In this document: in pieces, positions 33,001 through 42,000 of the stretch
How the letters are laid out: each line of letters opens with the position of its first letter
Numbering within the stretch: position 1 is the stretch's first letter
NCBI GenBank assembly: GCA_031459875.1
Contig: JAVKHQ010000002.1
Location: 32,001 to 96,000, forward strand
Reading direction: 5' to 3'
Source of the DNA: Candidatus Fervidifonticultor sextus
GTDB taxonomy: Bacteria; Sysuimicrobiota; Sysuimicrobiia; Sysuimicrobiales; Humicultoraceae
DNA length: 64,000 bases
Position numbers: made by a program

Positions 33001-36000
33001 GGCGCTGGGCCAGGCGCTCTGCGATATAGGTACCCAGGCTGCCCAGTTCACGGGTCATCGCAACGATCCCCATCGGCCCTCCGCCTCCAGGAACACCCGT
33101 GCTCAGGTGCGATCCGCCGCACCGGCCGCTGCCTGACCGCCCGGGTTCTTCCCCCGGCGCAGGGCGCGATAGGCGGGCAGGAGGAAGAGCACGACACTGG
33201 CCAGGATGAAGAGCAGGGCGATCGGCCGGGTGAAGAAGATGGCGGGCGAGCCCTGCCCCATGATGAGGCTCTGGCGCAGGGCCTGCTCGGTCATGTCGCC
33301 GAGGACCAGCGCGACGACCAGGGGGGCCAGGGGGTAGTCGAGTTTCTTGAACAGGTACCCCGCCACGCCCGCCCCCAGCATGAGCCAGAGGTCGAGGATC
33401 TGGTTGTTGGTGGCATAGGCCCCGATGCTGGAGAAGATGACGATCAGCGGGGCCAGGATGCCGAACGGGATCCGGTTGATGGCGGCGAAGACGGGGACCA
33501 GGGTCAGGACCAGCAGGACCCCGATGAGGTTGGCGGTGTACATGGACCCGATGAGGCCCCAGACGAACTCCCGCTGTTCTTTGAACAGCAGGGCCCCGGG
33601 GTTGAGGCCCCAGATGAAGAAGCCCGCCAGCATGACGGCGGCGGTGGGCGAGCCAGGGATCCCCAGGGTGACCATGGGCAGCAGCGCGCCGATACCCGCC
33701 GCGTGGGCGGCGGTCTCCGGCGCCACCACGCCCTCGACCTCGCCCTTGCCGAACCGTTCGGGGTGCCTGCTGAACTGCCTGGCCATGCCGTAACTCATGA
33801 AGGAGGCCGGGGTGGCTCCGGTACCCGGGAGCACACCAATCCAGAACCCCAAAATCGTCGCGCGGACGAGCGTGGTCACGTACCGGGGAAACAGCCTCCA
33901 GGTCTCCCACACGTCACGGAATCCCAGGCGCGCGCGGATGCCTTCCAGCCGCAGCCCTTCCTCCACGGTCAGGAGGATCTCGCCGAGGCCGAAGAGGCCG
34001 ATGGCAATCACGACGAAGTTGATGCCGCCCTGGAGGGCCACGACACCGAAGTGCATCCGCGGCTGTCCCGTCACGATGTCGAAGCCCACGGTCGCCAGCA
34101 GCAGGCCCAGCAGGGTCATCAGGATCGTCTTCGCCGGATCCCCGCCGCCCAGCCCGGCGAACGTCGCAAAGGCCAGCAGGAACACGGCGAAGTTCTCCGG
34201 GGGCCCAAACCGGAGCGCCAGGTCGGCCAGCGGCGGGGCGAAGAACGTGAACAGGACGATGGACACCAGCGCCCCGATGAACGACGACGTGAACGCGGCG
34301 GTCAGCGCGATGCCCGGTTTGCCCTGCTTGGCCAGCGGATAGCCGTCGAAGGTCGTGGCCACCGACCACGGCTCCCCCGGGATGTTGAACAGGATCGCGG
34401 TGATCGCGCCCCCGAAGATGGCGCCCCAGTACACCGACGCCAGCAGGATGATGGCTGAGGTCGGCTTGAGGGTAAAGGTGAGCGGCAGCAGCAGCGCGAT
34501 GCCGTTGGTCCCCCCCAGGCCCGGGAGCACCCCGATGGCCGTGCCCAGGACCAAGCCGACCACTGCCACGCCCATGTTGACGGGGGTGAGCGCGACCCCC
34601 AGGCCGTAGAGCAGATCGCTGAAGACGGACACGCGCTATCTCCGGTAGAGGAGGTATTCCAGGATGACACCCTTGGGCAGCAGGAGGAGGAACCACCGCT
34701 CGAAGATGAGGAAGAGCCCCAGCGGGATCAGCACGCTGACCAGCACGATGGTGACCGGGCGGTGGCGTCCCACGAACAGCGTGTAGCCTGCCAGGTACAG
34801 GGCCCCGCCCAGGTAGAGCCCCAGGTAGTCGATGAGGGCCACCACGGCCACCATGGGCAGGAACGCAGCCACGAGGGGCTTCCAGGCGCCGGGTGGGAGG
34901 AAGGGCCGGTCGCCGCCCGGAGCCGCCTGCAGGCTCTTAAGCAGGATCAGGATCGCGTTGAATGCCAGCCCGATCGCCAGCACCGTCGGGAAGAACCCGG
35001 CTCCCGGGCCCGTCGGGGTCCAGGCGACCGGCAGGCGGACTGCTTCCCGCAAAAGCAGGATGGCGCTCGCGACGAGCGCGAGCGCCATCGCCTGCCCGGC
35101 CCTATGCATGGGGCATCCGGTGACGGGGCGGGATCACTCTTTGGGCACCAGCCCGCCCCTGACCATGAGGGTGCGCACCTGGGCGTCCTTCTGGTCCAGC
35201 CACCGCACGAACTCGGCGCCGGTCAAAAACGCCTTCGTGTAGGCTCCGCGCTCGATGAAGTCGGCCATCTCCCGGGTGTCCAGCACCTTCCGAAACACGT
35301 CCTGGTAGAACACCACAGCCTCACCCGGCATCTCCGGCGGCCCGAAGATCCCGCGCAGCATCATGTATTCCAGCGGGAACCCCAGTTCCTTCATCGTCGG
35401 GATCTCCCGCCACCTGGGGAAGGGCACGCGCTCACTGGCGAAGAACGCCAGCGGCCGCACCCGCCCCGCCTCCCAGTGCCCGACGGCCTCGATGGGGTTG
35501 TTCACCGTGAAGTCCACCTGCTTGCCGACCAGCGCGGCTGCCACGGCGCCTCCGCCTGGGAACGGGACATAGGTGAACTTCACGTCCCACGCCTGCTCGA
35601 GCATCACCATGATGATCTCGTCTTCCTGCTTGGATCCCGTGCCGGCCATCTTCAGGCTGCCGGGCGGCGCGGCCTTGGCCGCCCGCTGGAAGTCGGCGAC
35701 GGTCCGCCAGGGCGAGTCGGCATGGACCCACAGGACGAAGTGGTCCAGCAGGAGTCGGGCGATCGGGGTCAGGTCCCGCCAGGAGAACCGGCCGCCGTCG
35801 CGCTTGCGGATGACCTGCGCGATGGGCGTGGCGAACAGGTTGTCCAGCGTGATGAGGATCGTGTGGGGATCCCCGGTCTTGTCGATCATCCACAGGAACG
35901 CCTGGGCCCCGGCGCCGGCCGGCCGGTTGACCGGGATCAGCGGCTGGGGCGAAAGGTGATACTGGGCCACCAGCGGCGCGATGAACCGCGCCTGCTGGTC

Positions 36001-39000: not shown

Positions 39001-42000
39001 AAGTCGACCACCGGCCGCATGGTGCGGGTGCTGAACTTCTTGAAGTAGGGGTTGCGCGCCGGCCGGTAGCCTCCGACCTGCCCGGTGACGGGGTCGGCGA
39101 TCCCGTTGCCCATGGCAATGCTGCGGATCGTGACGCCCTCGGCCATCTCCTTCCATCCGGGCAGGACGAACGCGTAGGGGGTGTCGGTGACCCCGACCCC
39201 CGCTGGCACCTCGGTGACCTCCACCCGCTCATACGCCTTGCGGGATGAGAGCATCTTCAGTTCGTCGTTCCACTCCTCCAGGATGGCCTGCTCGACCGCC
39301 TTGAGCCCCACCATCTCGGGGACCAGCCTGGCGATGGTACCCAGCAGCCGCACATCGGTGTGGTCGTCCTTGTAGACCCACAGGCCGGAGAAGCTGGGGA
39401 TCGCGCGCAGGACCGCCAGGTGGTAGGGGGCGTCCTTGGCGTGGATCATCTGGAGCAGGTCGTCGAACCCCAGCATGGAGGTCACGATCAGGTAGCCACC
39501 GGGATTGAGGAGCCGGTTGATGGGCTGCAGGCCGTACCAGGCCCACGACTCCACGCCCTTGCACAGCGTGTCGTCCACCGCGATGGTGACGTCCACGTGC
39601 TTGGGCTCGTACTGGGCCATGCTCTCCTCGAGGGTCTCCTCGTCGGGGGCGATGATGGCGAAGTTCTTGGCCGGGATGCCGTTGCGCTCCGGCGAGTCGC
39701 CGTACCGCCCGAAGGAGATGCCGGTCTTGCCCTCCTTGGAGGCCGCCAGGACCAGTCCGCGGCTGATGTGCTTGGCCAGGGTCTTCTGGAAGATCCCGCG
39801 GTAGACGATTTCCACCGCGTAGCTGCGCCTCATCCTCGACTCCCCCTCACCCTCGTCCGCGTGCCGCACCGCCCGGTCACCGTCGCGGGGCCCCGGCGCC
39901 CACGGGCTGGCGCTCGGACAGCAACATCTCCTCGATCTGCTCCAGGTGGTTGAGCATGGCCTGCCCGGCGGCCTCGGCGTCGCGGCGGCGGATCGCTTCC
40001 AGGATCTGCCGGTGCCCGCGCAACGAGCGCTGCGGCCGGCCGCGCCCCTGCAGCGACCGCTCGCGGCCCTCGCGCAGCAGGTCCATCAGGACGTCGATGA
40101 CCCGCAGGACCACCTGGTTGCGCGACGCCCGGGCGATCAGGTCATGGAAGGCGCTGTCCTCTTCGATGGCCAGGCCGCCGGCCTCGACCTTGGCCGCCTG
40201 CCGGGCCAGAATGGCCTCCAGCGCCTGGATCTCCTCGGGGGTGGCGTGGCGGGCAGCCTCGCGGGCAATCGCCGGCTCGATCATCTTGCGCACGGCGAGC
40301 AGGTCGGCGAGCAGGTCGCGCCGGGCCAGCAGGGCCGAGGCCAGCGGCGCCACCAGGTTGTCGGTGGAGAGTTCCCGGACCACGGTCCCCTCGCCCTGCC
40401 GCGGCTCGAGGAGCCCGGCGACCTCGAGGGTGCGGATGGCGTCCCGGACCGACGTGCGGCTGACACCCAGCGCCGCAGCCAGCTGGCGCTCGGGCGGCAG
40501 TTTGTCCCCGGGCTTGAGGCGGCCGTCGGCGATCAGGCGGCGGATGCGCGAGGCGACCTCCTCGTGGACCTTCGTCCGGCGGACGGGTTCCAGGGAATCC
40601 TTCAAGCGGTCAACCCGGGGTTCTTGACCCATACGCTGAAGATTGGTCCAATGGTCCAACATCTGCCCGCAAGAGAAGTATGATGCCCGGGGGAGGGCGT
40701 GTCAAGTGACCCCGGCGCTCACACGCCTTTAGGCAGAGGGGGCGGGTAACTGGAGAGGAATGCGCTGAGGTTGGATGCTCACGCTGGACGCCTTGCCGCT
40801 CAGGACCCGGTGAATGTTCTGCTGGATACTTCGGCGGCCTGCAACCGGTGAACGGTCGCCGAGGGGTCATATTACCCAGGCTGAGTTTCCCCAGCCTGGG
40901 GGGTCATATTCAATACATTCGGTGGCGACCCTACCGCCCGACCATCCTCCCTCCCGACGGCCCCCGTGTTGCTGGCACGCGATCCCGCGGCAGACCGTAG
41001 GCACAGCAGGCGGCGACCAGGCCGCCGACGCCCAGCGCCCCAAACGCCCAGCCCCAGGTGGTCGCCACCACTCCCGGGGGATTCGTGGCGTCGAGGATGG
41101 CCCCGAAGACGAGCGGTGCCGCGGCGCCGGCACCGAAGCCCAGGATTGACCGCACCGCCAGCGCCGCGCCCAGGTAGGCGGGGCGCACCGCCTCGGTCAG
41201 CGCCACCGAGAGCACAGGCGAGTCACCCAGCGCCGCAAATCCGTACAGCGCGCCGACGAGGGCCAGGACGGCCAGCGGCGCGGCGACCAGCCACCCAAAG
41301 ACCAGTGAGCAGCCGGCGCTGGCGGCGGCCAGCGCCAGCAGCACGGTGCGCCGTCCCAGGCGGTCGGAGAGGTGCCCCATCGACGACGAAGCCAGCAGGC
41401 CCATGACATGGAATGCCGACGCCAGATACGCGCCCACCTCGGCGGACCTGACGGCCGCCGCCCCTGCACGGGCCAGGCTGGCTGCGACAAACGCCGGCGC
41501 CCAGGCCCACATGCCCAGCAACTCCCACGAATGGAAGACGTAGCCGGCCGTCAGGCGGACGGCCTGCGGGTTGCGGAAGACCTCGGTCTGGACGCGCAAC
41601 GTTGCATGCCGCGGGTGTACCACGTTGGGCGTCGAGCGCAGCGCCAGCCACGCGACCACCAGTCCCAGTACAGGCCCGGTGGCTGCTGCCATGAATGCGA
41701 GGGGGTAGCCCCCGCGGGGCAGCATGGCCCCGGTGAGGAGCAGCGACGCGGCGTGGCTCAGCGAGGAACTGGCGATCAACCAGCCCATGGCGCTGCCGCG
41801 GGTCTTGGGGGGAAAGCGGTCCGCGATAAGCATGATGGCTGTCGTGTACGTCCCGCCCTGGGCCACTGCCGCCAGCGTCAGCAGCACGAGACCGGAGGCA
41901 TAGGACCGCGCCAGGGACGCGAAGGCCAGTGCTGTGGCCGCGCTGGCCACCGCCGAGGACAGGTAGACGCGGCGAGCGCCGACCCGGTCGGCCAGCCACG

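Follow-up and report, generated by a model that had tools for sequence, protein, structure and literature searches.

An operon of Candidatus Fervidifonticultor sextus encoding a putative CoA-free oxalate:ferredoxin oxidoreductase of a sister clade of oxalate oxidoreductase

The window (the whole stretch of 64,000 nucleotides analysed, positions 32,001 to 96,000 of contig JAVKHQ010000002.1) contained, by reading of the sequence, an intact set of seven co-oriented minus-strand genes in the order gntR–γδ–α–β–tctCBA, with intergenic gaps of 43, 38, 14, 148, 24 and 3 bp in operon order (Table 1), in agreement with the GntR-regulated 2-oxoacid:ferredoxin oxidoreductase (OFOR) operon with a TctABC transporter described in the genome-wide survey's note. 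The promoter listed was the sole promoter-like site between 31900 and 41000 (shuffled sequences yielded 0.6 ± 0.8). The tandem TGGACCA pattern occurred upstream of 5/95 gntR genes of such loci and of 0/1197 other genes; it was a single site in genome G000 and covered few loci. A palindromic operator pattern was dropped as unspecific (5/95 vs 8/1197). The cytidylate-kinase-like + BON gene, found in the same position in 7/39 phylum loci, is possibly the last gene of the operon. The MFS gene upstream of gntR (40931-42220) had no OxlT-family match in a profile search.

Table 1. Features of the operon and its borders (positions in the window)
Feature	Position	Strand	Basis or remark
Sigma-70-like promoter, TTGACA-17-CATACT	40677..40705	-	10/12 consensus matches; weak by itself
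Tandem TGGACCA box, promoter-to-gntR-start interval	40643..40659	-	Candidate operator of the FadR-type regulator
GntR/FadR-family regulator (GntR + FCD)	39877..40632	-	Pfam
Fused gamma-delta subunit (domain III + 2x[4Fe-4S] domain V)	38607..39833	-	Profiles, structure match, model pLDDT 84.9
Alpha subunit (POR_N + PFOR_II)	37345..38568	-	Pfam, PDB alignment
Beta subunit (TPP GDG motif, four proximal-cluster Cys)	36305..37330	-	PDB alignment, motif reading
TctC solute-binding protein	35134..36156	-	Pfam, tree
TctB small membrane subunit	34636..35109	-	Pfam
TctA large membrane subunit	33103..34632	-	Pfam, E 2e-150
Cytidylate-kinase-like + BON protein	32261..33073	-	Pfam; 29 bp after tctA

The enzyme had OFOR domains I, II, III, V and VI, a TPP motif and three [4Fe-4S] motifs, all three conserved, on three chains (I-II, VI and a fused III-V), the layout given in passages of PMC5020499 for the oxalate oxidoreductase (OOR) of Moorella thermoacetica (EC 1.2.7.10; PDB 5c4i, 5exd, 5exe; NF045790-NF045792). 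This OOR was the closest known system, and the fold was the same. Best PDB matches were OOR chains for alpha (5c4i_A, E 3.5e-97, vs 3.5e-65 for the PFOR 9bt4) and beta (5c4i_C, 1e-83 vs 9.2e-58 for PFOR), which reproduced the E values of the note, and also for gamma-delta (5c4i_B, 2.6e-19). In a Foldseek search the alignment-based model of gamma-delta matched OOR best (E 9e-24, 24% identity; PorC 7e-12), with OOR chains in the first eight ranks. Archaeal-type four-subunit PFOR (Methanosarcina acetivorans, 9bt4; NF040682, NF008819) shares the OFOR domains, TPP and Fe-S motifs, but PFOR-type outgroups differ in YPITP, in separate gamma and delta subunits, in the use of CoA and in their lower scores (E 3e-65, 9e-58).

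Alpha Arg42 of the YPIRP motif (38443-38445) aligned with OOR Arg31, alpha Arg120 with Arg109, alpha Gln223 with Gln211 (for which a role in OOR is assumed here) and beta Asn155 with Asn143, and alpha Ala127 (38188-38190) lay at the position of Asp116, all as the note had it. Passages of PMC5020499 place the YPIRP Arg in the oxalate-binding site of OOR and Asp116 in its bait-and-switch mechanism; other residue roles were taken from parts of PMC5020499 and PMC12654022. Position 116 was Ala in 49/50 phylum genomes read, with Ser in G059, and Asn in two archaeal loci, so that the note's "always Ala" did not hold. The note had the Asp116Ala substitution right and missed a second change in the same loop (DDPGAF vs DPPGDF in Moorella): alpha Asp124 (38197-38199) lay at OOR Pro113, three residues before the Asp116 site. 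The Pro113-to-Asp change was always paired with loss of Asp116 (79 vs 43 of 122 loops among the matches listed, none mixed); the GTDB loop-pattern scan covered at least 120 loci and is a sample rather than a census, and the match in the unpublished genome G147 (which reads RILDDPGEF) was excluded, leaving 5, not 6, of 151 Acidobacteriota. Beta Asp157 (36860-36862) lay at OOR Gly145, and this clade-specific Asp co-occurred with the alpha loop change. Gamma-delta Trp152 aligned, in a low-identity stretch, at about OOR Glu154, and a change of Glu154 to Trp probably co-occurs with the loop change as well (G-[LM]-W in 87/115 gamma rows, E-G in 23/23 canonical rows among the matches listed). A single Asp116Ala change understates this co-varying set. 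About 70 extra C-terminal residues in gamma-delta also set the enzyme apart from Moorella OOR, and a non-glycine domain III loop is common to both.

All three subunits scored below the NCBIfam cut-offs for OOR (NF045790/1/2, score/cut-off 85/230, 382/500 for alpha, and 330/590), whereas four canonical-loop alphas exceeded theirs (575-790). In the tree, an OOR superclade (SH-aLRT support 100) was formed by a canonical clade (100) and the Asp113 clade (98), in which YPIRP was present wherever the motif was read. The Sysuimicrobiota enzyme is by its sequence a sister clade of canonical OOR and falls outside the OOR family as curated, because none of its three subunits reaches the cut-off and it lacks Asp116.

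Enzyme orthologues (≥60% identity) occurred in 67/94 phylum genomes of five families, a count that takes in G000 as well as two unpublished genomes, G016 and G024, and is made up of kin rather than independent genomes; the wide spread over five families stated in the note stood, and its size (26/41) was too low. TctC adjoined the enzyme in 33/94 genomes. The gntR gene immediately preceded gamma-delta in 37/39 phylum loci and in 32/50 Asp113-clade GTDB loci among the matches listed. Hosts of the Asp113 clade beyond Sysuimicrobiota included Rokubacteria, SAR202 and some archaea; unlike Moorella, hosts are mostly non-acetogenic uncultured lineages. A plasmid-borne clade member was not found (4 matches at 32-35%).

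The strongest pointer to oxalate comes from the transporter slot. OxlT (TIGR04259, above the curated cut-off) occupied it in 10/50 Asp113-clade GTDB loci among the matches listed (directly after beta in 9, directly ahead of gntR in 1). Arg272 and Lys355 were retained in the copy that was aligned with 8hpj, and the Lys motif was present in 26/26 copies read. In the phylum, OxlT was rare and occurred in 8/94 genomes, all with the enzyme and five of them in the operon slot, and a TctC orthologue in 43, with no genome holding both. In Acidobacteriota, OxlT occurred in 3/151 genomes, and in G245 each of two enzyme copies was followed by OxlT. OxlT was absent from G000 and from most loci. Canonical-loop OOR loci shared GntR, OxlT and the TctC subfamily with the Asp113 clade, OxlT flanking 12/30 of them by cluster among the matches listed (3/4 tested were above cut-off). 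OxlT normally exports formate, which is not an OOR product, and this counts against oxalate oxidation.

TctC, TctB and TctA were adjacent and above Pfam cut-offs, in the TctC-TctB-TctA order of TctABC transporters. TctC fell in a subfamily (100/100) apart from the six other G000 TctC proteins and distant from all solved Bug/TctC structures (4x9t, 25hk, 6hke, 5oei, 7ndr; best E 3e-27). A limited literature search on tripartite tricarboxylate transporters and oxalate yielded no description of an oxalate-binding TctC-family member. Oxc occurred in 0/94 and OxdC in 3/94 phylum genomes; neither these nor canonical OOR had a match in 4/5 phylum genomes with OxlT in the operon slot, and an Oxc above cut-off was absent from five genomes belonging to other phyla. 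The CoA transferases and TPP enzymes that adjoin SAR202 copies are neither Frc nor Oxc, as they scored below the cut-offs. At locus L068, gntR and the Asp113-clade genes came after a CoA ligase gene and a panE-like one; a full-length member of the ligase family (L038) had oxalate-CoA ligases as its best matches (E 9e-127, vs 2e-73), and a passage of PMC8411744 identifies PanE2 as oxalyl-CoA reductase. The note's reading of an OOR-type enzyme whose substrate is oxalate or a close analogue thus gained support from the OxlT slot, the ligase and panE locus and the absence of Oxc.

On residues and gene context, the basis of the assignment, the enzyme probably oxidises oxalate without CoA to two CO2 and reduced ferredoxin. 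GntR/FadR would repress an oxalate-catabolism operon, and TctCBA would bring in oxalate, the TctC ligand being suggested by context. The three-chain TPP/3x[4Fe-4S] enzyme would then release two CO2, as Moorella OOR does, and hand two low-potential electrons to ferredoxin. The Arg31, Arg109 and Asn143 equivalents would, by homology, grip both carboxylates. In place of Asp116, Asp113 of alpha, Asp145 of beta or both probably serve as acid/base and in the Arg switch, with a rebuilt plug loop, as their co-variation suggests. Reduced ferredoxin may feed energy conservation or CO2 reduction. The missing Asp116, the apparently replaced Glu154 and the three sub-cut-off scores, set against canonical-loop alphas that pass, count against oxalate.

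The main rival, which is unlikely, is a CoA-free oxidoreductase that acts on a C2 compound related to oxalate and works beside canonical OOR, with glyoxylate yielding CO2 and formate (by formyl-TPP hydrolysis) or oxamate yielding CO2 and carbamate, and with Asp113 partly neutralising Arg31 for a mono-anion. Loss of Asp116 would fit, formate as a product would suit OxlT, and both enzyme types occurred together in at least 5 loci of Acidobacteria, of which 2 had both alphas and 3 were cut off, and also in G006, a co-occurrence that suggests that canonical and Asp113 enzymes are not redundant. An FMN hydroxyacid oxidase of the glycolate/lactate type after beta (6/50 Asp113-clade GTDB loci among the matches listed) and an LctP/GlcA-like permease after tctA (6/39 phylum loci) point to glycolate or glyoxylate; formamidase-family neighbours were found at some loci, and plasmid TctC relatives adjoined gcl-glxR, glyoxylate aminotransferase or pdxA, with no oxc/frc in the 5 plasmid regions read around them. 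However, Arg31 and Arg109 are both retained, OxlT is described in PMC10070484 as strictly discriminating for oxalate, and the L068 ligase and panE would produce glyoxylate from oxalate, which would make burning glyoxylate futile there. The tandems could also be explained by the electron acceptor: in Acidobacteria the canonical delta forms a fusion with an NAD(P)-linked flavoprotein.

A TPP oxalate decarboxylase, in which a mostly protonated enamine would give CO2 and formate coupled to OxlT exchange, would agree with the loss of Asp116 and with OxlT in the slot of four genomes without another formate-yielding oxalate enzyme, but is very improbable given that all three cluster motifs are conserved and that OxlT, flanking canonical-loop loci too, is not peculiar to the Asp113 clade. 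A new CoA-free TPP/Fe-S activity of whichever kind (glyoxylate or oxalate to formate and CO2, or oxamate oxidation), in tandem with canonical OOR, is taken together somewhat unlikely; if real, the enzyme would rank with the most common catabolic enzymes yet to be characterised in Sysuimicrobiota, Rokubacteria, SAR202 and some archaea, and a so far undescribed TctC subfamily for C2 acids would supply it. PFOR gamma subunits have a Gly-rich CoA loop. An ordinary CoA-dependent pyruvate or 2-oxoacid:ferredoxin oxidoreductase, as in the source annotation ("pyruvate ferredoxin oxidoreductase") and with a PorA_Arch score of 355 next to 382 for the OOR alpha profile, is hardly credible against YPIRP in place of YPITP, a tree position nested with OOR, YRGIFQK where domain III would have its CoA loop, a TIGR02175 match that begins only at profile position 16 (22.6 bits), the presence in G000 of another, fused PFOR-like gene and of three genes for E1 dehydrogenases, and a dedicated regulator and importer. 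Domain III is the CoA-binding domain in the passages of PMC13768988 on it.

A 2023 survey of oxalate degraders (PMC10192776) relied on oxc, frc, oxdC and oxlT, and "oxidoreductase" is absent from its main text; the operon, carried under its pyruvate label by most phylum genomes next to the near absence of Oxc and OxdC, may give soils, sediments and springs a route of oxalate breakdown that has gone uncounted. If oxalate is oxidised, the enzyme would be an uncounted oxalate sink in an abundant soil and subsurface phylum, plus Rokubacteria, SAR202 and others, oxalate would be an organic low-potential electron source that bears on the chemoautotrophic description of the phylum, and the TctC protein would become a candidate for oxalate binding. 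The enzyme is also a natural test of the need for Asp116 in the OOR mechanism. Phylogenies of OOR in the existing literature may already hold Asp113-clade members. The note's statement that neither phylum paper mentions oxalate held for both main texts and not for Dataset S11 of PMC11962464, which lists, without comment, K19071 oorB, K08177 oxlT and K07795 tctC among the genes gained by the terrestrial ancestor; that oorB may be the same gene as the operon's enzyme.

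Moorella thermoacetica oxalate oxidoreductase (OOR; PDB 5c4i) was the first match for all chains of the operon enzyme (alpha, E 3.5e-97; beta, 1e-83; gamma-delta, 2.6e-19), confirming the genome-wide survey's note for alpha and beta. The doubt it raised over the low gamma-delta identity was removed by an alignment-based model (pLDDT 84.9), for which eight OOR chains ranked above every PFOR gamma. The NCBIfam OOR models were the best match for each chain, yet scored below cut-off (382/500, 330/590 and 85/230), and four alphas with the canonical DPPGDF loop scored 575-790. The alpha tree comprised 107 sequences (88 from loci, with phylum loci thinned to about 1 in 3 and fragments <370 aa dropped, and 19 representatives) and was built by a quick method with SH-aLRT support and no bootstrap. 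Its OOR superclade (SH-aLRT 100) consisted of a canonical clade (100) with Clostridium, Sporomusa, Deltaproteobacteria, Acidobacteria and Actinomycetota, and a second clade (98) with the window protein, which lay in a four-row group with one named Sysuimicrobiota (Humicultoraceae) sequence. The operon is real, and its enzyme is predicted to function as OOR does, although it falls outside the OOR family by Asp116 and the curated models.

Arg31, Arg109, Gln211, Asn143, the TPP motif and every cluster cysteine were kept in the window enzyme (OOR numbering), and the four residues listed by the survey were thus borne out by alignment. According to excerpts of PMC5020499, the YPIRP arginine of OOR, Arg31, is the oxalate-binding residue, Arg31 and Asp116 drive a bait-and-switch mechanism, and CoA is not needed. 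The switch loop was R-A-L-D-D-P-G-A-F in the window versus R-T-L-D-P-P-G-D-F in OOR, with Asp116 lost and Pro113 replaced by Asp. A GTDB scan with the pattern left free at positions 113 and 116 (at least 120 loci) gave 122 loops among the matches listed: Asp113 in 79 (77 with Ala116, 2 with Asn116), Pro113/Asp116 in 43, and mixed combinations in none, which argues that Asp113 with loss of Asp116 is a single ancestral event, strictly maintained. The claim that Asp116 is always Ala stood for 49 of the 50 phylum genomes read, but not for G059 (Ser) or the two GTDB loops with Asn. Two further substitutions accompanied the loop change. Beta Gly145, two residues past Asn143, was Asp in 76 of 114 rows (9 unreadable); Gly remained in the 25 canonical rows and also in 2 archaeal rows, locus L037 (a true exception) and 1 row from a neighbouring canonical operon. 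Of 115 gamma rows, 87 had G-[LM]-W in the plug-loop region, and E-G was kept in all 23 canonical rows shown. Glu154, a curated catalytic residue in an excerpt of PMC12654022, was mapped onto the window gamma-delta through a weak alignment. Two loci labelled Nitrososphaerota (L084, L087) had a DDPGNF loop, APHV at the Gln211 motif and beta Gly145, and represent an early branch of the Asp113 clade.

Features of the operon and its flanks (window positions)
Feature	Position	Strand	Remark
alpha/beta-hydrolase and adenylate/guanylate cyclase gene	42190-43500	-	split at a G run near 43220 by a frameshift
sigma-70-like site	40705-40677	-	taken alone, near chance level
tandem TGGACCA box	40659-40643	-	3' of the sigma-70-like site
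gntR (GntR and FCD)	40632-39877	-	domain search
fused gamma-delta gene	39833-38607	-	
alpha gene	38568-37345	-	
beta gene	37330-36305	-	
tctC, tctB, tctA	36156-33103	-	
cytidylate-kinase-like/BON gene		-	after tctA
MarR regulator, then protoglobin	30315-31555	+	protoglobin Pfam E 1e-37; convergent with operon end
CitMHS/ArsB-type permease	28988-30241	+	upstream of the MarR-protoglobin pair

Intergenic gaps from gntR to the cytidylate-kinase-like/BON gene were, in order, 43, 38, 14, 148, 24, 3 and 29 bp. The tandem box occurred upstream of 5 of 95 gntR genes of such loci versus 0 of 1197 other genes, and gntR would regulate itself through it. In the split gene, GISEGG goes on in another frame, and the frameshift is possibly an assembly error.

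The operon enzyme probably oxidises oxalate. OOR catalysis comprises TPP addition, CO2 loss, two-electron transfer through the clusters and release of a second CO2. Here, an inducer would free GntR and TctCBA would import oxalate; by homology with OOR, TPP would add to oxalate held by Arg31, Arg109 and Asn143, the first CO2 would depart, ferredoxin would receive two electrons by way of the three clusters, and the second CO2 would follow. Speculatively, Asp113 of alpha or Asp145 of beta might stand in for Asp116.

Locus genes were called with a purpose-built codon model and clustered, and cluster representatives plus 65 of 245 singletons were scanned; locus and genome counts include kin, and rows are not independent. 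Across 50 GTDB loci of the Asp113 clade, among the matches listed, gntR stood in front in 32, Tct occurred in 11, and the antiporter OxlT (MFS above the TIGR04259 cut-off) in 10, directly 3' of beta in 9. An OxlT copy aligned to 8hpj retained Arg272 and Lys355, oxalate ligands conserved throughout the OFA family according to an excerpt of PMC10070484. OxlT exceeded the cut-off in 8/94 phylum genomes, all enzyme-bearing and none with the TctC orthologue, and was immediately 3' of beta in 5 of them. The TctC orthologue (>=49%) was found in 43/94 (41 with the enzyme, 33 adjoining it) and in 0/23 of family f4. In Acidobacteriota, OxlT was above cut-off in 3/151 genomes, two of them enzyme-bearing, and G245 had two enzyme copies with OxlT after each. 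Many loci had no transporter within view. In G071, a split OxlT-like gene directly followed beta and an intact OxlT lay farther along (L185:4494-5593 and 1871-3109). In two f4 loci (L184, L189; genomes G076, G061), a branched-chain-type ABC transporter occupied the slot after beta, a possible third importer type.

Oxc was above cut-off in 0/94 phylum genomes and OxdC in 3/94 (G035, G036, G071), so that in G058, G059, G072 and G079, with OxlT in the operon, no other oxalate enzyme was found. Frc was not found in G000, the window's genome. Locus L068 had, in order, a CoA ligase, a panE-like gene, gntR, the three Asp113-clade genes and a canonical OOR operon. With the L038 member as query, the closest solved relatives of this ligase family were oxalate-CoA ligases; an excerpt of PMC8411744 describes PanE2 of M. 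extorquens as an oxalyl-CoA reductase.

Two neighbours counted against oxalate: an FMN hydroxyacid oxidase after beta in 6/50 GTDB loci among the matches listed, and an LctP/GlcA-like permease after tctA in 6/39 phylum loci. TctCs beside both OOR types formed one group apart from six other G000 TctCs (100/100; tree with 8 of 22 phylum rows). Since this group also held plasmid proteins without OOR, beside gcl-glxR (Skermanella), a glyoxylate aminotransferase (Cupriavidus) and pdxA (Roseomonas), with two other neighbourhoods uninformative, the subfamily is not oxalate-only. Glyoxylate or oxamate as substrate is unlikely. Cleavage of oxalate to yield formate, for which an oxalate/formate antiporter might serve, is very improbable in an enzyme with every cluster cysteine. 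A CoA-dependent PFOR, as the database labels would have it, is the least credible: PFOR domain III carries a Gly-rich CoA motif, and the window has RGIFQK at that position, resembling RGVVMN of OOR. The gene set of G000 also includes another PFOR-like gene (a fusion), a third gene with POR_N, and three E1 dehydrogenases. Azospirillum and Skermanella plasmids (L197-L199) carried a tctCBA-(terC)-gntR-CBS module, its TctC ~47% identical to the window's. Rokubacteria loci end in a similar tctCBA-terC-gntR stretch, but the plasmid module came with no enzyme genes.

The wide occurrence noted by the survey was upheld: 72/94 phylum genomes (a set that takes in G000 and two unpublished genomes, G016 and G024) had a match at E <= 1e-40, and 67/94, in five of seven families, at >=60% identity. 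Beyond the phylum, the Asp113 clade occurred, among the matches listed, in Rokubacteria/Methylomirabilota, SAR202 and other Chloroflexota, Acidobacteria, Myxococcota, Acetothermia and several archaea; of 151 evenly sampled Acidobacteriota genomes, 5 carried it and 1 had the canonical loop. Of the 8000 candidates in a protein search, 5544 reached E <= 1e-50, PFORs included, and named matches were labelled pyruvate ferredoxin oxidoreductase. No description of the clade was found in the listed titles and abstract openings on OOR, Asp116, YPIRP, oxalate with TctC, Sysuimicrobiota and oxalotrophy, a scope outside which the primary OOR papers fall. Word searches found no "oxalate" in the main text of either phylum paper, as the survey had it, but in Dataset S11 of PMC11962464 oorB, oxlT and tctC are listed as genes that the terrestrial ancestor gained; oorB there is an automatic label and may refer to another gene than the operon's.

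Both enzyme types were present in 5 Acidobacteria loci, in two more assemblies and in G006, and may therefore differ in substrate. Alternatively, they may differ in electron acceptor, because delta of the canonical acidobacterial enzyme carries a fused NAD(P)-linked flavoprotein. In these canonical operons (L038, L051, L059, L066, L075, L094, L105, L107 and others) delta was often joined to a glutamate-synthase-small-subunit-like flavoprotein, which suggests an NAD(P)-linked OOR, and a CDC48-like AAA ATPase often lay within the operon. The second, canonical-loop alpha of G006 (L175; G006:C84:1253-2470; 575/500 on NF045791) came with a separate gntR and AAA ATPase, and its contig also carries the variant operon. 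In five Rokubacteria/Methylomirabilota loci (L042, L047, L077, L109, L111), pdxS/pdxT and a MocR-type regulator preceded the enzyme genes, with gntR downstream.
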